A DNA stretch of 10,526 nucleotides from a virus (Duplodnaviria > Heunggongvirae > Uroviricota > Caudoviricetes). Positions 547 to 9,805 of this stretch are shown in pieces (within the stretch, counting starts at the first letter, position 1; every line of letters begins with the position of its first letter). The notes under the pieces are model-generated. The model was given only the letters and a program-made list of their open reading frames with translations. It ran no database searches and was not told the DNA's origin. The translations under genes were made by a program, and so were the position numbers. The stretch lies in the IMG/VR virus record IMGVR_UViG_2609459769_000020, one strand, 5' to 3'.

Positions 547-686
547 TAAATAGTCTCCTCTTCATGGCTGTTTGCATAAACGTAAATAAACGTCTGCCAT
601 GCAGGCTTATAACGGTTCAGAATACATTCCAGCGCACCGCCTTCATAAATACGCAGCGGCGTGAGAATATCATCCAGCACATTCAT
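546..686 (-). CDS. Small ORF (46 aa) bridging the gemA-like stop and the tail-fibre start; possibly a remnant 3' end of a baseplate/tail gene rather than an independent gene
   Basis: My translation: MNVLDDILTPLRIYEGGALECILNRYKPAWQTFIYVYANSHEEETI. Its ATG (686..684) overlaps the gemA-like stop and its TAA (548..546) overlaps the tail-fibre ATG (TAATG). No recognisable family. Confidence 0.25.
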   Translation of the reverse strand: MNVLDDILTPLRIYEGGALECILNRYKPAWQTFIYVYANSHEEETI

Positions 687-886
687 ATTCCGGTAACCGG
701 CTTCTGACGCACTTTAAAACCGCGTTTTTTGAAAACATCCAGCACGCGGGATAACTCATCCGGTGACATATCCCGGCAACTGGGTTTGCCGGTGGCTGCC
801 AGTAGTACGGATGTGTAGGTCTCATGGTCAAGCTGTAGATCGCGTTTTGCGACATGTATTAAGGTAATCAGGGAAGCGCGATTCAT
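683..886 (-). CDS. gemA: GemA-family (Mu gp16-like) protein, apparently truncated (67 aa)
   Basis: ORF-track protein MNRASLITLIHVAKRDLQLDHETYTSVLLAATGKPSCRDMSPDELSRVLDVFKKRGFKV... fits the GemA/DUF1018 N-terminal pattern (LIHVAKR.L.LD.ETY...TGK.S...MS..EL..VL..FK..GF) as I recall it. SD GGAGA lies upstream of the ATG at 886. I recall family members being considerably longer (over 100 aa); here the frame stops right after the conserved N-terminal block. Confidence 0.5.
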   Translation of the reverse strand: MNRASLITLIHVAKRDLQLDHETYTSVLLAATGKPSCRDMSPDELSRVLDVFKKRGFKVRQKPVTGI

Positions 887-950: not shown

Positions 951-1361
951 ATGAAAATAGATTACGATGAAGTATTAAGTATTCTCACAACTTTTCAGGA
1001 TGCTGAAACACCTTTCCTTACACTACAGGATCTGGGCATGGCTGAGGCAGAAGGAGAGGAAAAGGATAAAAAAGTTTTTCATCTTATGCTTCTCGCTGAT
1101 AATGGCTCAATTGTTAATGGTGATATGCAGTCAGAAACACCCAAATATATTGGTTTCTTTTTCCATTCTCTGGGCGTTGGTTTCAGAAACACGCCCATTA
1201 TGCTTACCCAGCAGGGGCATGATTTAGCTAACGCCCTGAGAAAAAAACCAATCCTTGAAAGAATCAAAAAGGAGTTTACAGACGCACCATTTGATCTAAT
1301 TAAAGAAGTTACCAAATCAATGTTAACCAGGTTCGTCAAAGAACGTATTGGGATTGACTGA
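951..1361 (+). CDS. Hypothetical protein (136 aa), opposite-strand insert; possibly DUF2513-like
   Basis: ORF-track ORF with AAAGG about 7 nt upstream of the ATG. Visibly more AT-rich than neighbouring phage genes and the only convincing plus-strand gene inside the minus-strand operon. The LTQQGHDLANALRKKPILERIKKEF segment faintly recalls small prophage-associated DUF2513 proteins; unverified. Confidence 0.5.
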   Translation: MKIDYDEVLSILTTFQDAETPFLTLQDLGMAEAEGEEKDKKVFHLMLLADNGSIVNGDMQSETPKYIGFFFHSLGVGFRNTPIMLTQQGHDLANALRKKPILERIKKEFTDAPFDLIKEVTKSMLTRFVKERIGID

Positions 1362-1997: not shown

Positions 1998-2323
1998 GCA
2001 TTCACCTCCCGTAATTCCGGTAAAGCCGAAATATGACACCAGTGCGTCACCTGTCCGTCTTCATCTTCAAGGCAGGCTCCGGTTTCTTCATCAACAAAAA
2101 AGCCTTCATACCCCATATGGCCGATGCGCAGCTCCTGACGGTGACCATACTGAACAATCAGCACGACAGCCTCCATATCAGGTGGGAAAGCATCATTCAG
2201 TGAATGCCAGGGATAACCGCGTAAATCCCCGAAATAAACACCGGTCAGCGTTCCGCCACAGAGCGGCATTCCGGCGGCACACACAAGAGGTTCATCTGAT
2301 TCAACAAATAAGGTCGTTATCAT
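1994..2323 (-). CDS. Hypothetical protein (109 aa)
   Basis: ORF-track ORF; its ATG overlaps the upstream stop (ATGA coupling at 2320..2323). No recognisable motif. Confidence 0.5.
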   Translation of the reverse strand: MITTLFVESDEPLVCAAGMPLCGGTLTGVYFGDLRGYPWHSLNDAFPPDMEAVVLIVQYGHRQELRIGHMGYEGFFVDEETGACLEDEDGQVTHWCHISALPELREVNA

Positions 2324-2871
2324 GGCGTTAACTCCCGTAATACAGCGTCCTCGGCAGTCCGGCGACGGTAATAAACTGCGTGAGCAGAATGTTCAGATAT
2401 TCCAAACTTTTCGCCAATTTCCCGGAATGACAGACGGCGTGGGTAATCGGAATCACGCAGCGCACGTATAAGACGTACATCATCATCAGATATGCGCGTG
2501 CCGGGGCGTAACTCTCCGCACTTTGTTAATCCAGCACCAATCATTCCTGCCCGACATCTGACAGAATCTTTATTACGTCCGAGATATTCTCCCATTTGCT
2601 GGCAGGTCATTGTTCTGGCATTTTTTCGAATAAACTTATCTTCATCAGGTGTAAATCTTGGGTGTTTATATTTCAGTAACTCCGGGTATGAACTGCGCAA
2701 TACACCAGTCCGGTTATATACAGCCCAGACAGTTCTTTTTATTCTGGCAGCAATATCCTTAACCGGGGTGGATGAATAAAGCGCAATCAGTAGCGCATCT
2801 TCTTCAGGTGTCCACGCGCGGACATGAGCGGGTGTACGACCTTTTCGCCCCATGTGTTGTAAAATCATCAT
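2320..2871 (-). CDS. Putative DNA-binding regulator: two Myb/SANT-like repeats plus a C-terminal HTH resembling the Mor/C activator family
   Basis: ORF-track protein (183 aa). Repeats WTPEEDALLIALY...IAARIKRT and FTPDEDKFIRKN...MGEYLGRNKDSVRCR; C-terminal SDDDVRLIRALRDS...LSFREIGEKFGISEHSAHAVYYRRR. SD GGGGGTGA upstream of the ATG at 2871. Confidence 0.55.
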   Translation of the reverse strand: MMILQHMGRKGRTPAHVRAWTPEEDALLIALYSSTPVKDIAARIKRTVWAVYNRTGVLRSSYPELLKYKHPRFTPDEDKFIRKNARTMTCQQMGEYLGRNKDSVRCRAGMIGAGLTKCGELRPGTRISDDDVRLIRALRDSDYPRRLSFREIGEKFGISEHSAHAVYYRRRTAEDAVLRELTP

Positions 2872-3926: not shown

Positions 3927-4469
3927 TTATTCCTCCGTCAGCGCCACATATTCAGAATGTTTAATTTCCTGGCATTCTTCAGGAATACATCCGTTTATTT
4001 CCCTGCCATAAGCGCCCACTTTAAACACCACGCACAGGGCATCACGGGAGAACGAAGGGGTCCACCAGGAGTCCGTGTTAAACATGGAGGGGATTCTCAT
4101 TACCCCCAGCTTTTCACAGAGCCAGACAAGGAAATCAGGACGCTTTCTTAACTCGCGTTCAGCGGCTTCAATCATTGCGGCAATCGCCGGTCCTTCAGGG
4201 CATGACTCATCAGGTCTGGCTATAAAGCACTGTCCGCCACCGATAAAAGCCACATCATCGCGCTTACGCCAGCCCGCAGGCAGAGCACCGGCAAAATAAA
4301 ACTCACTGATTCTGTCCATGGCGAACGGCTTTAAGCGCAATCCGGCAGCGCCTGTATTTTTCAGTAATGTCCGAAGAATACTGTTGCGTAGCGGTAAAAC
4401 AGCCTGTTGATATTTGGTGAAATATTTATTTGTCTGCACACGGTCTAATTTGAAATAAAAATATGCCAT
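3927..4469 (-). CDS. Hypothetical protein (180 aa)
   Basis: ORF-track ORF with SD AAGGAA upstream of the ATG at 4469. First gene after the 97-nt AT-rich gap downstream of gam. No recognisable motif. Confidence 0.5.
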   Translation of the reverse strand: MAYFYFKLDRVQTNKYFTKYQQAVLPLRNSILRTLLKNTGAAGLRLKPFAMDRISEFYFAGALPAGWRKRDDVAFIGGGQCFIARPDESCPEGPAIAAMIEAAERELRKRPDFLVWLCEKLGVMRIPSMFNTDSWWTPSFSRDALCVVFKVGAYGREINGCIPEECQEIKHSEYVALTEE

Positions 4470-4566: not shown

Positions 4567-5097
4567 TTATTTATTCAGTCCGGCATCCTGTTCAAAAGGC
4601 TCGACATAAAAACTTTCAGCGCCTTTATTCACCTTTATACCGGCAATGCCTTTCACCGCATCCGGCTCCGCCAGGACGGCTTCCTTGTTCACTTCCTCTT
4701 TCGTGCGGATGAATCGCTCAAGCCCCATACGGCGCAGCGTGTCAATCACACCTTCCACATCACGGCTGACGCTGCATGATGGCGTTCCCAGCCGCCATGA
4801 CACCGTTCCGGTGGTCAGATTGGCAGTTTTGGTTTTGCCGCCGTTCGTCAGCTCATCACGGTTGGTTTTACACCAGTCCTGAATCCCTTTAAAAAGCACT
4901 TTGATTTGCTTTTTAAGATTTTCAATCTGCGGCGTATAACGGGCGGTGATTTCTGCCACTTCATCATTCATCGCCGTTTCCAGGCGCAGCGCCTCTCGCT
5001 GAATATCGCCCAGGGTGCGGATATCGCGGCTGACTTCTTCGCGGGTCTGCGGTGCGGCCTCGGCTACAGCCTTTAATTTTGTAACGCGTTTTGCCAT
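4567..5097 (-). CDS. gam: Host-nuclease inhibitor protein Gam (Mu Gam family, Ku-like DNA-end binding)
   Basis: ORF-track protein (176 aa) MAKRVTKLKAVAEAAPQTREEVSRDIRTLGDIQREALRLETAMNDEVAEITARY...CKTNRDELTNGGKTKTANLTTGTVSWR...ERFIRTKEEVNKEAVLAEP...EPFEQDAG closely matches my recollection of Mu Gam in length and in the LQREA.RLE.EMND, NRDELTNGGK.KTANL, RFIRTK.E.NKEA and PFEQ.AG blocks. SD AAGGA upstream. Confidence 0.8.
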   Translation of the reverse strand: MAKRVTKLKAVAEAAPQTREEVSRDIRTLGDIQREALRLETAMNDEVAEITARYTPQIENLKKQIKVLFKGIQDWCKTNRDELTNGGKTKTANLTTGTVSWRLGTPSCSVSRDVEGVIDTLRRMGLERFIRTKEEVNKEAVLAEPDAVKGIAGIKVNKGAESFYVEPFEQDAGLNK

Positions 5098-5108: not shown

Positions 5109-5402
5109 TTATTGCAATGTATCTGGTGCGTTCTGCAAGGAGCGGCGCTCAATGCTGCTTTTCACCCCCAGAGCCTGCATGGAACCCTGAAGTTCATCTG
5201 TCAGAAACTGAATAATTGTGGGGCTGTGATATTTAAGAATTTGCGCATAAACATCACATGGGCCTGTCGGTCTGTTCTCCGTATCACGTTCGATTTTTAC
5301 AGTGGCAGTAACCCCCTCCGTGATTTCCTGACTATCATTACCGGCTGGCTTTACTTCATGCATTACGTGGTTAAATTCAAAAATAACGCGTACTTTGCTC
5401 AT
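5109..5402 (-). CDS. Hypothetical small protein, paralog 2 of a tandem pair (97 aa from revised start)
   Basis: The track ORF 5109..5429 has an internal ATG at 5402 placed 4 nt after the upstream TAA; this gives MSKVRVIFEFNHVMHEVKPAGN..., which parallels the N-terminus of the upstream gene. The two 5' ends also align at the DNA level. Confidence 0.45.
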   Translation of the reverse strand: MSKVRVIFEFNHVMHEVKPAGNDSQEITEGVTATVKIERDTENRPTGPCDVYAQILKYHSPTIIQFLTDELQGSMQALGVKSSIERRSLQNAPDTLQ

Positions 5403-5406
5403 GGAA

Positions 5407-5679
5407 TTACCCCTGCTGATTAAATTCATTACCGTTAATAACCCCGGAAGCCATGCCCCTGTCTTTCATGAATGCACTGGCTTTCATTGCCACAAGCTCT
5501 GCGAAGTTTCTGCTTTCCGCGAGCATAACCACCCCAAAAATCATGGCGGGTCCATCACCTTTCTGCTTTATCCCGGTTGAACGTATGTCCAGACTTACCC
5601 CCATGCGCACTGTTCCATCAGCGTTTTTATGGATAACGTGCTCCTTATATTCGAAAATAATGTGTACGACTTTACTCAT
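5407..5679 (-). CDS. Hypothetical small protein, paralog 1 of a tandem pair (90 aa)
   Basis: ORF-track ORF starting MSKVVHIIFEYKEHVIHKNADG...; its ATG overlaps the upstream TGA (ATGA). Confidence 0.45.
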   Translation of the reverse strand: MSKVVHIIFEYKEHVIHKNADGTVRMGVSLDIRSTGIKQKGDGPAMIFGVVMLAESRNFAELVAMKASAFMKDRGMASGVINGNEFNQQG

Positions 5680-5957
5680 CCTCTGGTCCTCGTTCTGTTT
5701 GGATAACTGACCCGGCGTCTGACCTCACGGCAGAACCGAATCATGGCATTAAAGGCTTCTTCCTCCGTCACCGCTTCCGGTATCCCCGGAACCAGTAACT
5801 GCTCCTGTTCATCACGTCCATGACGCGCCATAACCTCAATCACATGCCGTACCGTGGCAGGCTTTCCGGCAACTATCGGCAATGCACCTTCCGGCAGGAC
5901 GTAACCAAACTCAATAAGACCACTCGACCACGCCCATGCAATGAGATTTTTTTTCAC
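5676..5957 (-). CDS. Hypothetical protein (93 aa, GTG start)
   Basis: ORF-track ORF. The start is GTG at 5957, with a strong SD GGGAGGTG about 6 nt upstream. Confidence 0.45.
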   Translation of the reverse strand: MKKNLIAWAWSSGLIEFGYVLPEGALPIVAGKPATVRHVIEVMARHGRDEQEQLLVPGIPEAVTEEEAFNAMIRFCREVRRRVSYPNRTRTRG

Positions 5958-5958
5958 C

Positions 5959-6213
5959 TCACACCTCCCAGTAAACCGTGCAGCCGCTGATGCGGGTGGC
6001 CTTCACACGGCGGCGCAGGCCGTTGGTCTGTATGGTGATTTCAATTTCACCGGTTCCCTGCACGTTGCCTACCGGCGGCGTGGTTTTCAGTGCAAAACGT
6101 TGCGGATAGCGCTTACTGCGTTCCAGTACCGCACCGGCAAGTTCGGTCAGACGGCGCGCGCTGTTCAGGGAGTCGAATAAATTCATTTTGTTACCGCAGG
6201 ATTGCATATTCAT
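5959..6213 (-). CDS. Hypothetical protein (about 84 aa; start uncertain)
   Basis: Track ORF 5959..6225. The first ATG has no SD, whereas AGGTG precedes the internal ATGs at codons 5 and 7, so the start is more likely 6213 or 6207. Confidence 0.35.
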   Translation of the reverse strand: MNMQSCGNKMNLFDSLNSARRLTELAGAVLERSKRYPQRFALKTTPPVGNVQGTGEIEITIQTNGLRRRVKATRISGCTVYWEV

Positions 6214-6225
6214 ATAACACCTCAT

Positions 6226-6447
6226 TTAGCTGACTTGTTTCGCACCAACAGAACGGCATATTCCGCTGTAAACTTCTGTCGCACCTTCGCGATCAAGTCC
6301 GGCAGATATCACCATTCGTGTGCGGTCATTAAATTCAAAAAGTAAATCGCCACATTCTTTATTTTCGGCCAGTGAAATCACCTTCACGTTATCGAAATTA
6401 ACCAGGTAAAAGCGTCCGTAAATATCAGGAATATTAAATACCGCCAT
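6226..6447 (-). CDS. Hypothetical small protein at the position of Mu kil (first gene after B); function not established
   Basis: Track ORF 6226..6453 begins at a GTG. An ATG at 6447 with SD AGGTG 7 nt upstream sits 2 nt after the B stop codon. The kil assignment is by position only. Confidence 0.4.
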   Translation of the reverse strand: MAVFNIPDIYGRFYLVNFDNVKVISLAENKECGDLLFEFNDRTRMVISAGLDREGATEVYSGICRSVGAKQVS

Positions 6448-6449
6448 AA

Positions 6450-7391
6450 TCACACCTGTGAGAGTAATTCAGGGTTGGTATAAACCTCTTTAAAGGCCGC
6501 ATTAATATGTTTTTCTGTCAGCGCCGCGCCTTCACCGCTGGCGGTGAGCCACGCCTGGTTAAGCGTATGTGTCAGAACGCGTAACGCTCCCGGCTTTTCA
6601 GCGATAGCCTGCATGACGGCCAGCTCGGCCTCACCACTGATCCCCCACGCCATGGCAATGGCCAGCACATCCGCCTTTTTGGCCTTGCGAAGTTGTTTTG
6701 TACGGGCAAGACGGCTGAACAGGCGCGATAAATCATCAAAGGCGCGGCGTCCACCTTTAAACAATCCGCGCGGGTTACCAATAAGCACCATCCCGATCCC
6801 CGTGGCGTCCTGAATTGCCCGGAGTTGCTCCAGACCGTCAATACCAAGATGATCCGCCTCATCCACAATCACCAGTCCACGCGTTCCCATCAGGCGACGG
6901 CGGATGGCGCGGGATAATGCCCCTTTGTTCGCGCGGGTGTAATCAATCCCCAGCGCATCGGCCAGCTCCAGCAGACACTCCGTGACGCTGGAGTGCGCGG
7001 GTGACAGGGTGATCATCCAGGTGTTTGGTTGCTCCTGGCAGTAATTACGGGCAGTGGCCGTTTTACCCACACCCGGTACGCCCACAATAACGTTAATACA
7101 GCCCATCAGGCGAACCGCCTGAAACAGTGCGCGCAGCTCCTGGACTGTCTGAGTTTCCACAAACTGCGGCGGTTCCGGCAGTGCGCTTTGTTTATTCCAG
7201 TTCTCATACCAGGAGCGCAGGGAAGCAGCCACAGCAGCGTTATCGCCTTTATATTTTCCCTTACGGAAAGCCGATAATGTGCCGTCGGAAATTCCCGCCT
7301 CTCTGGCGATGGCATACTGCGTCAGTACGCCGCCATCAATAAGTTCATCAATGGTCTTGATTACATCGTTAATATCGGTCATATTATTCAC
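6450..7391 (-). CDS. B: Mu B-like ATP-dependent target DNA activator (AAA+ transposition ATPase)
   Basis: ORF-track protein (313 aa). Walker A GVPGVGKT and Walker B LVIVDEADHL are present, and the N-terminal HTH-like segment and overall length match my recollection of Mu B (312 aa). The track start is GTG at 7391; an ATG at 7382 preceded by GAGG may be the true start. Confidence 0.85.
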   Translation of the reverse strand: MNNMTDINDVIKTIDELIDGGVLTQYAIAREAGISDGTLSAFRKGKYKGDNAAVAASLRSWYENWNKQSALPEPPQFVETQTVQELRALFQAVRLMGCINVIVGVPGVGKTATARNYCQEQPNTWMITLSPAHSSVTECLLELADALGIDYTRANKGALSRAIRRRLMGTRGLVIVDEADHLGIDGLEQLRAIQDATGIGMVLIGNPRGLFKGGRRAFDDLSRLFSRLARTKQLRKAKKADVLAIAMAWGISGEAELAVMQAIAEKPGALRVLTHTLNQAWLTASGEGAALTEKHINAAFKEVYTNPELLSQV

Positions 7392-7464: not shown

Positions 7465-9555
7465 TCAGGCCAGCGGATCACTTTCTTTTAATTTCGCTTC
7501 GAGCAGTTGCAATCCCCGCTGGAAATTACGCTCGTATTCTTCATCAGGTTCATCGTCAGCGACCGGTTGCTGAACGGTCACCGTATTACCCACAGGGCGG
7601 TATATGTTTTCCAGCCAGGGCTCCTGCGGCTTGTGCTCCAGCACGTTGACAACCTCATCCTCGGCATCACGGATTTTTTCCTCTGCGCGTTTACGCATGC
7701 CTTTAAGGCGCTGCTGCTGTTTGTAGTATTCCGCGCTGACAGGGAAGGCTTCGCGTTTATTGCCGTCCCATACCGCCTCGCAAATCACGCTGCCATCCGG
7801 GCGGCGCACGGTAATTCGTTCGGCATCATGAATGTCATAGCTGATAAGTACCTTACGGCCATGCTCGTCACGCAGCTCGGGCGCGTAGTAAATATTATTC
7901 AGCCAGCGTATTTCACAGCGTCTTACAGGGCGCTCCACCATCGGCCGGAACATATCCCGCAGTTCAACATCGGACAGCCATTCAATTTCCGTGTCCTCTT
8001 CCGCCAGGCGTTTTTTTCTGAACTCCGCCGGGCTGTAATGTTTACCGTTCGGCTTCATGGGTAATTCATCGTGCGGCCGGTTGTTGTACCACTCAACACC
8101 GTCACGAATGGCATCAATCAGTTCAGACCAGGACGGTAAATCACGCATCGCTGACTGCTGCCGGGCGTTCAGCCGTTTGCCCTGTTGCAGGGCACTGAAT
8201 GCCGAGCGTAAATCGCGGTTGGTTTTACGTAACGTCTCGCGATCTGCTCCTTTCCCGAAATAGGTGCGGTATTTACGGGCTATGCGCATCGGTAATGTGC
8301 GGTTAAGCCGTTCGATAATGCCCCGTCCCTGCGGATTACCGGCAATCCCTGTCGGGTGATTAATCCCCAGTCGTGGCAGTATCCCCACAATCTCCTTATC
8401 CAGGACGTCGGCGGTTTCCCCGGAGCCATTATCCGAGTAATACAGAAACGGTTTGCCATGATGGCGAATACCGTGCTGTATGGCACCGGCTACGGCGAAA
8501 ACATTTTCAGCCAGGTCAAGACTCCAGCCCACCACAAAGCGCGTGCCACCGTCGATAACAAAGGTCACTTCCGGTGCGAATGGCCGCCCGTGAACCGGGT
8601 GCGCGCATTTCAGCTTCATGCCGTGACCGTCACCAATCCAGACATAATTCACCGGCATTCTGGACCAGTCGCGGCGCGTGAATCCCTCAAGCTGACGGTA
8701 TTCACTGCCAGTTACCCGGCCTTTTTGTTTCACCACTTCCGGCAGTTTCTTCATTGCGCGGCGAATGGTGTCATAAGAGGGCATGATATCGAGCATATAA
8801 GGCTCATCAGCGTGCCGGTGCTGCCATTCAGCAACAAAATCCTCGTAAGCCTCGGTCATTGGTCGGCCGTTTGACTGGCGATACTGCGCCAGAAATTCGG
8901 GCAGCCAGTTAATATCTTCGGCTTTTATTTCCTGGCGTTTACCCGGTGCCAGTAAAAGCAGGCGTTCAGCGGCGTTCTGTGCCTTGTTAAAGGCCGCAAT
9001 CCAGCGTTTCAGCGTGATTTCACTCAACGCGCGGCTGTTTCCCTTTTTGGCGTTCGCCGTCTCAACCATTGCCACAATGCGCTCGTCCAGTTGTGATCGT
9101 GCCAGGCTGTTAACGAGGAACCGGATAGCCTTAGCGCAACTAAAGCCGGGTTGTTGCGCGATTTTCAGCACCTCGCTGACGATCGCTATTCGTGCCTCTG
9201 CCACTTTACGTTGGTTTTCAGTCAGGGCATTGAGGCGTTCGACCATCAGTTGGGGTGATCCGCGATATGCCTCCACCGCATCAACCACGGCAGGTGAGCG
9301 TCTGGCCTTTGTCACCACCGGAGCCGGTGATTCATCGGCTTTTTGCGTCATCAGTTGCAGGGCGTAGCGTTCACGTAATGCCTGCTGCGTCACTTCAGGT
9401 AAACAGTCGATGCTGTATTCAGTTGCTTTAGAGCCTGAGCGACGACGGGAACAACAGCTTTTCCCTTGTACGTAACGTTGTAATGCCTGGCGAATACCTT
9501 TTGTTGTAGCAGGCATTCCGGGCGCGCCAATCAGTTCTTTTGCAATGACATACAT
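7465..9555 (-). CDS. A: Mu A-like DDE transposase
   Basis: ORF-track protein (696 aa). Candidate catalytic DDE triad in the segments WIGDGHG, YYSDNGSG and GRGIIERLNRTL, with spacing consistent with the Mu A/retroviral-integrase fold. Position is immediately downstream of ner (the ner stop and A start are 1 nt apart). Confidence 0.85.
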   Translation of the reverse strand: MYVIAKELIGAPGMPATTKGIRQALQRYVQGKSCCSRRRSGSKATEYSIDCLPEVTQQALRERYALQLMTQKADESPAPVVTKARRSPAVVDAVEAYRGSPQLMVERLNALTENQRKVAEARIAIVSEVLKIAQQPGFSCAKAIRFLVNSLARSQLDERIVAMVETANAKKGNSRALSEITLKRWIAAFNKAQNAAERLLLLAPGKRQEIKAEDINWLPEFLAQYRQSNGRPMTEAYEDFVAEWQHRHADEPYMLDIMPSYDTIRRAMKKLPEVVKQKGRVTGSEYRQLEGFTRRDWSRMPVNYVWIGDGHGMKLKCAHPVHGRPFAPEVTFVIDGGTRFVVGWSLDLAENVFAVAGAIQHGIRHHGKPFLYYSDNGSGETADVLDKEIVGILPRLGINHPTGIAGNPQGRGIIERLNRTLPMRIARKYRTYFGKGADRETLRKTNRDLRSAFSALQQGKRLNARQQSAMRDLPSWSELIDAIRDGVEWYNNRPHDELPMKPNGKHYSPAEFRKKRLAEEDTEIEWLSDVELRDMFRPMVERPVRRCEIRWLNNIYYAPELRDEHGRKVLISYDIHDAERITVRRPDGSVICEAVWDGNKREAFPVSAEYYKQQQRLKGMRKRAEEKIRDAEDEVVNVLEHKPQEPWLENIYRPVGNTVTVQQPVADDEPDEEYERNFQRGLQLLEAKLKESDPLA

Positions 9556-9556
9556 A

Positions 9557-9805
9557 TCATGACGCCTTTCTCATATAGCTCTTAACCTGGTATCGACTGG
9601 GCCAGATTTCTTCAGGTGATACCCCAAGAGCATCAGCAATTATTTGCTGATACGGTCGGCAAGGAGTACGTAATACGCTTTTCAGCGAATCCCTGCTGTA
9701 ACCAGCCTTTAAAGATAAAGAGCGCAGTGATAAGCCAGCCATGTGTAAGCGCGCCTTGATGATTTCAGGCGGCCAATCGTGATCTGAAACTTCTCTTCTA
9801 CTCAT
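9557..9805 (-). CDS. ner: Ner-like DNA-binding protein (Mu Ner / E. coli Nlp family)
   Basis: ORF-track protein (82 aa) ...DWPPEIIKARLHMAGLSLRSLS...QQIIADALGVSPEEIWPSRYQ... matches the recalled Ner/Nlp pattern, including the C-terminal IWPSRY block. SD GAGGAAG upstream of the ATG at 9805. Confidence 0.8.
   Translation of the reverse strand: MSRREVSDHDWPPEIIKARLHMAGLSLRSLSLKAGYSRDSLKSVLRTPCRPYQQIIADALGVSPEEIWPSRYQVKSYMRKAS

Follow-up and report, generated by a model that had tools for sequence, protein, structure and literature searches.

Two small early genes in tandem upstream of gam in a Mu-like Escherichia coli prophage and their relation to the gp7 slot

Locus and gene arrangement

The stretch of DNA analyzed here (the window; 10,526 nucleotides (nt), IMG/VR virus record IMGVR_UViG_2609459769_000020) is the left (early) end of a Mu-like (Sp18-type) prophage of Escherichia coli, and the analysis concerns two small adjacent genes, g1 and g2, lying just upstream of gam. 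We hold with modest confidence that they are two gp7-like accessory genes in tandem, in a slot exchanged by recombination, and that their products are probable small modulators of the host envelope. The prophage of E. coli JKHS016 was 100% identical to the window over the 2.1 kb tested, and of 5426 complete E. coli genomes, 232 carried a related prophage copy with 88-96% identity, O157:H7 strains being frequent among them. The early genes of the window are all on the minus strand, in the order ner, A, B, orf75, kil-like, orf93, g1, g2, gam, orf180, gp11-like and gp12-like. This gene order and the RefSeq coding sequences agree with the first-pass annotation, made from the sequence alone, in which g1 and g2 were described as adjacent tandem genes of the early region, located just upstream of gam. 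The features around the pair are as follows.

5676-5957, minus strand: orf93 (phrog_1518), upstream neighbor of g1 and presumably translationally coupled to it
5407-5679, minus strand: g1, 90 amino acids (aa), phrog_4107, RefSeq WP_000049397.1
5647-5679, minus strand: conserved 5' module of g1, codons 1-11, MSKVVHIIFEY (family consensus MSKVVRIIFEY)
5403-5406, minus strand: g1-g2 spacer, 4 nt from the g1 stop to the g2 start as read from the sequence
5109-5402, minus strand: g2, 97 aa, phrog_2230 (Mu_3F6 gp7-type), RefSeq WP_000049308.1
5373-5402, minus strand: conserved 5' module of g2, codons 1-10, MSKVRVIFEF, the most conserved segment of the gp7-like family
4567-5097, minus strand: gam, downstream of g2 (Pfam PF07352 Phage_Mu_Gam, E 7e-42; 56% identity to Mu Gam)

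The g1 and g2 proteins start with MSKVVHIIFEYKEHVIHKNADG and MSKVRVIFEFNHVMHEVKPAGN, respectively, and are labeled in RefSeq as hypothetical proteins of 90 and 97 aa. The ATG of g1 overlaps the stop codon of orf93 (ATGA) and the gap between g2 and gam is 11 nt; because of this overlap and of the 4-nt and 11-nt gaps, orf93, g1, g2 and gam presumably form a tightly packed operon with translational coupling. A probable Shine-Dalgarno sequence of g2, AGGGG, lies inside the 3' end of g1. A longer g2 open reading frame (ORF) reaching position 5429 is also present; RefSeq annotates the 97-aa form. Both g1 and g2 are counted as real genes since they are annotated in RefSeq and show a ratio of nonsynonymous to synonymous substitution rates (dN/dS) of ~0.3, below 1.

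The conserved 5' module

BLASTP gave no alignment between g1 and g2, sensitive settings included, owing to the seeding limit for a short gapped match, and Smith-Waterman alignment with shuffled sequences was therefore used for this pair. The g1-g2 score of 54 was reached by 0 of 5000 shuffles (23.3±4.1), corresponding to a Gumbel p of ~4e-5 to 7e-5. At the DNA level, when the 33 nt at the start of g1 were compared with both strands of the window, the best non-self match was the 5' end of g2 (score 16 vs 5.5±1.6), with 25 of 30 nt identical and one 3-nt (single-codon) indel. The conserved N-termini described in the first-pass annotation are thus beyond chance, and the peptides and DNA strings quoted there do occur where it placed them, the DNA strings being the reverse complements of both 5' ends.

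The region shared by g1 and g2 covers only about the first 11 codons and coincides exactly with the invariant segment of the gp7-like family, whose signature can be written as M-[AS]-K-V-(x)-(x)-[VI]-I-[FI]-E-[FIY], with invariant columns V6, I7, F8 and F10 in a 20-sequence alignment. Once the first 12 residues were removed, no significant similarity was left between the two proteins in pairwise comparison (p 0.04). Over the N-terminal codons of g1 and g2, the proportion of synonymous differences (pS) was 0.41-0.58 and that of nonsynonymous differences (pN) 0.08-0.12 (few sites), and because of these values the N-terminal likeness fits maintenance by protein-level constraint, not recent gene conversion. 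A cross-correlation of body hydropathy between g1 and g2, a method low in power even for true homologs, peaked weakly at the collinear offset (r ~0.3, z ~2.4).

Among 1612 ORFs from 37 loci, the N-terminal motif was found in gp7-slot genes only, plus one other ORF. This single non-slot match, a 146-aa ORF of Gilliamella sp. wkB112 (locus L023, 4454-4894) located downstream of gam and starting with MSKMTLIIEFENG, is probably due to chance.

Families and predicted structures

g2 belongs to phrog_2230 over its full length (E 4e-37; residues 3-97 aligned with positions 1-88 of the 89-position profile), a match that survived removal of the N-terminus (hhalign E 4e-5 to 1.5e-8). It shared 31% identity (E 4e-7) with the 89-aa protein at the gp7 position of Escherichia virus Mu_3F6. 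The VIFEF start, a GP.D..A.I motif at the helix start and a P.II motif are common to g2 and phrog_2230, whereas g2 and its alleles differ from Mu_3F6 gp7 in having five additional residues in the hairpin and an extended C-terminal tail (97 vs 89 aa), and g2 lies directly upstream of gam where the Mu_3F6-type gp7 lies between gp6 and gp8. Besides Mu_3F6 and PhiR68_1, proteins of the phrog_2230 type occurred in prophages of E. coli, Yersinia, Cronobacter, Salmonella, Kluyvera and one further enterobacterium.

For g1, the match was to phrog_4107 and spanned the entire protein (E 8e-59; residues 1-90 aligned with positions 1-90 of the 90-position profile). A search of 1.84 billion representatives with the g1 profile gave nine hits, of which the credible ones were close relatives or fragments of g1 and the remainder were spurious repeat proteins (P0086, P0087); phrog_4107 is very narrow, being essentially confined to Sp18-type prophages of E. 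coli. The two proteins fall into separate PHROG families, both uncharacterized (phrog_4107 carries no annotation), and not into unrelated characterized ones. Pfam, NCBIfam and PDB-sequence searches gave no family for g1, g2 or Mu gp7.

In profile-profile comparison, the g1 family aligned with the whole 25-sequence gp7-like alignment at 83% probability (E 8e-6, 73 collinear columns) and with the g2 subfamily at 81-88% probability (E 3e-6 to 1e-5), in alignments collinear over 73-77 columns. The hhalign comparison of g1 with phrog_2230 gave E 8e-6 at full length and 0.1 after trimming, and the PHROG search gave no cross-hit from g1 to phrog_2230 at E<=0.1. When a phrog_2230-type hidden Markov model (HMM) was run against the 1612 ORFs, Mu gp7 was recovered at E 1e-4, followed by six g1 alleles at E 0.01-0.26 and the first unrelated ORF at E 0.76; two more g1 alleles, that of the window included, came below this ORF (E 1.2-1.4).

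The AlphaFold2 model of g2 (predicted local distance difference test (pLDDT) score 80) showed a long beta-hairpin (residues 4-21/24-39) followed by helices at 48-58 and 60-77. The weaker model of g1 showed a beta-hairpin (3-18/24-38) and a helix at 57-73, that is, the same order of elements (hairpin then helix) in a protein of similar size. Fold searches with the two models gave nothing informative. A hydrophobic run in g1, AMIFGVVMLA, was considered as a transmembrane segment and rejected by inspection, being only 10 residues long and flanked by charges, and a weak match between g2 and orf75 (FEFN..., E 0.067) was treated as chance.

Allele exchange at the slot

The exchange of alleles at the gp7 position was clear between Mu (NC_000929 4784-5047; locus L014 1485-1748) and Mu_3F6 (locus L001 2495-2764), which differ by a clean replacement of the gp7 cassette, with both flanks 95-100% identical, 30-58% identity across exactly the gp7 ORF, and only about the first five residues (MAKVI) kept. 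With flanks near-identical and the gp7 ORF divergent, the slot thus carries interchangeable, very different alleles with the same first residues.

In Sp18-type prophages, g2 occurred as two allele classes (window-type and O157-type) sharing ~60% protein and 53-78% DNA identity within a backbone of 93-100% identity, the drop starting just past the conserved 5' codons and stopping at the start of gam. For g1, internal mosaic patches were evident across related prophages, and a deep allele (P0084) shared 54% identity in a locus with a 95%-identical gam, where a g2 gene follows as well. Between the g2 allele classes, pS was 0.00 in the first 12 codons vs 0.60-0.64 in codons 13-70, and between deep g1 alleles it was 0.17 in the 5' module vs 0.71 and 0.39 in two segments of the body. 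Since pS is 0-0.17 in codons 1-12 vs 0.4-0.7 in most of the body, the 5' module belongs to the conserved backbone, with recombination breakpoints placed just 3' of it.

Temperate phages carry mosaic accessory ("moron" or hypervariable) slots in which conserved boundary sequences guide recombination. The gp7 slot resembles typical slots of this kind in its sharp drop of identity within one gene and in having breakpoints at gene edges; it is unlike them in that the conserved boundary lies inside the coding sequence (~11 codons) and doubles as a protein signature. That a small accessory gene should be hypervariable and sit in a mosaic slot of the early region is to be expected of a temperate phage and makes no new kind of system; what is modestly new is the use of an in-frame conserved 5' module as a recombination edge together with the tandem stacking of alleles.

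Copy number and natural variants

The g1-g2 tandem was present in 39 of 41 Sp18-type IMG/VR loci, and Muvirus genomes carried a single gene at the slot. E. coli STEC299 has a single 98-aa gene in which the upstream context and the first six codons (ATGAGTAAAATCGTACGC) are g1-type and the remainder is g2-type, and which is an in-register chimera such as unequal recombination between the two 5' repeats would give. In a second g1-less form of the junction (locus L046), a remnant of orf93 is joined straight to an intact g2, and in locus L083 g1 is frameshifted and g2 truncated. From the STEC299 chimera and these two loci, g1 is the dispensable extra copy, and the 5' ends of g1 and g2 do recombine. 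Whatever the function of the two proteins, these natural deletion chimeras document a clean case in which recombination breakpoints fall within a gene, directly behind the codons of a conserved N-terminal module.

Two further forms of g1 were observed. In E. coli FORC_029 (locus L007, 1978-2280) the g1 stop codon is lost and 10 codons are added (100 aa, ...QQGEFHEQSTRYF), giving an overlap with the start of g2, and P0001 has the same extended form. In E. coli 23CRST049 (locus L004, 84-2419) an IS66-family element, ISEc22, lies directly after g1; the C-terminus of g1 is altered (98 aa), and g2 and gam are removed or displaced from the locus.

Selection

Gene-wide dN/dS was 0.31 for g1 and 0.34 for g2, compared with 0.07 for gam, 0.14 for kil, 0.13 for orf93 and 0.15 for gp11, and constraint on g1 and g2 is relaxed. 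Among gene segments, pN/pS was highest between the g2 allele classes, at 0.94, over the last (C-terminal) third of the gene, and gene-wide dN/dS exceeded 1 in none of g1, g2 and the compared genes. Between g2 alleles dS was 0.75 (near-saturated) vs 0.17 in gam, and because the divergence of g2 is paired with this raised dS, it points to old alleles moved by recombination, not to a burst of adaptive substitutions. The diversifying selection proposed in the first-pass annotation thus finds no support, with dN/dS at 0.31 and 0.34 and dS raised in parallel.

Comparison with Mu gp7 (Gnarl2)

The name Gnarl2 was given by Silas et al. (Nat Commun 2025; PMC12373910; bioRxiv 10.1101/2023.04.06.535777) to the protein of the gp7 slot in phage Mu (gp7, also E6 or Mup07; NP_050611.1). 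Expression of this protein shifted O-antigen bands down in the wild E. coli strains ECOR1 and ECOR22 and raised T5 infection 1e5-1e6-fold in ECOR1 and ECOR22, not in ECOR3; the name was called tentative by its authors (PMC12373910). Gnarl1 and Gnarl3 (GalU-binding small protein, phage Mangalitsa) are from the same work (PMC12373910), and g1 and g2 are proposed to share their class, that of O-antigen-altering, non-enzymatic phage accessory proteins of 40-90 aa. Gnarl1 and Gnarl3 come from lytic phages, and their likeness to g1 and g2 is an analogy of proposed functional class only. Our reading of the literature on the gp7-like family yielded nothing beyond two papers by Silas et al.

Like g1 and g2, Gnarl2 is a small early protein whose gene lies between kil and gam in an early operon of the Mu type, and its N-terminus (MAKVIIEI) shows one signature with those of g2 (MSKVRVIFEF) and g1 (MSKVVHIIFEY). 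The gene order is B, kil, gp6, gp7, gp8, gp9, gam in Mu and B, orf75, kil, orf93, g1, g2, gam in the window, with a single copy at the gp7 slot in Mu and the g1-g2 tandem in the window. Canonical Mu gp7 starts with MAKVIIEIKNTVSG, has 87 aa and belongs to phrog_10252. The "Mu gp7" homolog of g2 is not Gnarl2, as Mup07 of NC_000929 and the Mu_3F6 gene matched by g2 are of different allele families. Gnarl2 was linked to the phrog_2230 family by the HMM search (E 1e-4 among the 1612 ORFs), by hhalign (E 2e-6 over 70 columns) and by a PHROG cross-hit (E 0.009), a link that was gone without the first nine residues (E 0.08). The body of Gnarl2 was not detectably similar to that of g1 or g2 (trimmed profile E 0.08-0.11).

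Interpretation of the tandem

In the reading that we favor, g1 and g2 would be accessory genes of the early region, transcribed together, and would belong to a loose family of gp7-like cassettes in Mu-like phages, the members of which would have 85-98 aa, a place in the early operon between kil and gam, an N-terminal strand signature and a hypervariable remainder. Phages exchange the slot by recombination, and the breakpoints fall at the edges of the gene and right after the conserved 5' codons. The tandem would stem from a duplication of the slot, either in situ or through unequal recombination stacking two already divergent alleles. Stacking of pre-existing alleles would be at least as likely as in-situ duplication, since equally divergent alleles exist at the single-copy slot of Mu. 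Of the duplication followed by diversification put forward in the first-pass annotation, the shared N-terminus stands, and duplication becomes only one possible route, since homology is demonstrable for ~11 codons and divergent alleles already circulate. Over the whole gene, g1 and g2 may be paralogous.

As to function, the products of g1 and g2 would be non-enzymatic and would bind host factors in lytic development, perturbing the biosynthesis of O-antigen/lipopolysaccharide (LPS) in a strain-specific manner. Target specificity would lie in the variable body, and the structural core would be formed by the conserved N-terminal strand. For this specific function, that is, strain-specific perturbation of O-antigen/LPS with the body setting specificity, we would allow roughly one chance in three. 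A role as host-interaction factors, as suggested in the first-pass annotation, is indirectly supported by Mu gp7/Gnarl2, which has the same slot and signature; the anti-defense part of that suggestion is not, and neither protein showed any link to DNA repair, restriction or known defense systems. Should the functional reading hold, Sp18-type prophages would carry a natural allelic series of Gnarl2-like proteins, in two slots that each hold deeply divergent alleles within a near-identical backbone, and could serve as a panel for studying why O-antigen alteration by phages is strain-specific and for finding the target of Gnarl2. One may go further and view the gp7 slot as a modular specificity system, in which ~11 codons would act both as core strand and as an in-frame recombination "handle" by which bodies are swapped, deleted and stacked, and in which g1 and g2 would be effectors of differing O-antigen/serotype specificity, kept in tandem so that the prophage could remodel the surface of a wider range of hosts; this extension is improbable.

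Several results weigh against the favored reading. The families phrog_2230, phrog_4107 and phrog_10252 are held apart in PHROGs, and the links among the three hang on the first 9-12 residues, with E values of 0.08-0.28 after trimming, within the control range. Between the families of g1 and g2, hhalign without the N-terminus gave E 0.18-0.28, and unrelated small early proteins used as controls gave E 0.05-0.8; together with the pairwise result, this agrees with the divergent C-termini noted in the first-pass annotation. At E<=1e-3, neither g2-type nor Mu gp7-type proteins were retrieved by the g1 profile from the 1.84 billion representatives, and the structure model of g1 is of low confidence (pLDDT 62). 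Pairwise comparison with Gnarl2 gave p 0.14 for g1 and 0.44 for g2, the functional analogy to Gnarl2 is based on slot position, size and a 10-residue signature, and the phenotype of Gnarl2 itself comes from heterologous expression (PMC12373910).

These results also bear on a narrower explanation, in which the 5' ends alone are related, as a junction or "anchor" of ~30 nt spread by recombination, with unrelated bodies, unrelated functions and no useful paralogy between the genes. The non-significant trimmed comparisons of g1 and g2, their separate PHROG families, the breakpoints right after the conserved codons with synonymous sites conserved there between alleles (pS 0-0.17), and the STEC299 chimera as a product of recombination between the two 5' ends are all in its favor. 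However, the hhalign alignments run collinearly over 73-77 columns and so extend beyond the N-terminus, the two proteins match in size and in predicted beta-beta-alpha order, and the hydropathy of the bodies correlates, if weakly, at the collinear offset. Moreover, a pS of 0.41-0.58 between the N-terminal codons of g1 and g2 is unexpected for a recently copied junction, and as protein the motif is the most conserved part of the family, also in cases such as MAKVIIEI of Mu in which the DNA is different. A relationship restricted to the 5' ends, the main rival reading, is regarded as unlikely, without being negligible.

The model of the first-pass annotation, a local tandem duplication followed by positive selection on the C-terminal parts of products that counter host defense or interfere with repair or restriction, is doubtful. 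It draws on the adjacency of the two genes and their common 5' end, on their location in a known accessory region beside gam, on dN/dS values 2-5 times those of gam, kil, orf93 and gp11, and on the pN/pS of 0.94 in the C-terminal third of g2. Yet gene-wide dN/dS never exceeds 1, the dS of 0.75 between alleles vs 0.17 in gam suggests old recombined alleles, and the single-copy slot of Mu is equally divergent, so that divergence need not follow duplication. Neither Pfam nor NCBIfam gave a match or a link to repair or defense proteins, and the sole experimental datum for the slot, that on Mu gp7, points to the cell envelope, not to DNA-targeting defense. A coincidental likeness of common MSK/MAK starts followed by a hydrophobic strand, for which the BLASTP result and the frequency of M-S-K starts in E. 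coli phage genes can be cited, is very nearly discounted by the shuffling result (0 of 5000), by the 5' end of g2 being the best non-self DNA match in the window, by the restriction of the motif to gp7-slot genes plus one ORF among the 1612, and by a natural chimera (STEC299) that joins both 5' ends in register.

Other genes of the window

Upstream of orf93, the early region contains the following genes.

9557-9805, minus strand: ner
7465-9555, minus strand: transposase A
6450-7391, minus strand: B
6226-6453, minus strand: orf75 (phrog_3375), between B and kil
5959-6225, minus strand: kil-like gene

Two allele classes were found for orf75 (75-78% vs 96-99% protein identity); the mosaic boundary between them is sharp, as in locus L007 (window 6412-6233). 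orf93 is labeled "host nuclease inhibitor" by PHROGs (phrog_1518) and in some RefSeq records; it showed no similarity to Gam and no Pfam hit, and the label may be a propagated annotation. The gene is mostly missing in loci L005, L013 and L046, in which the last ~22 codons alone remain. Between gam and the gp11-like gene lies orf180 (phrog_2260; 3927-4469, minus strand), which has no Mu counterpart, is absent in the close relatives L011 and L012 and is represented by a 24%-identical allele in L013; it is another accessory slot of the presence/absence type.

Elsewhere in the window, a GemA-like ORF (683-886, minus strand; 67 aa) matches no more than positions 1-45 of a 119-position profile and seems to be truncated. 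A 136-aa ORF directly upstream of it (951-1361, plus strand) gave a sub-threshold match to DUF2513 (E 7e-5, 23.6 bits vs a cutoff of 29.6); a moron may have inserted here, or gemA may have been disrupted. orf183 (2320-2871, minus strand) showed weak Myb/helix-turn-helix-type matches and resembles Mu gp9 (E 4e-6); it is located downstream of the gp12-like gene, not upstream of gam, so that the gene order is rearranged compared with that of Mu.

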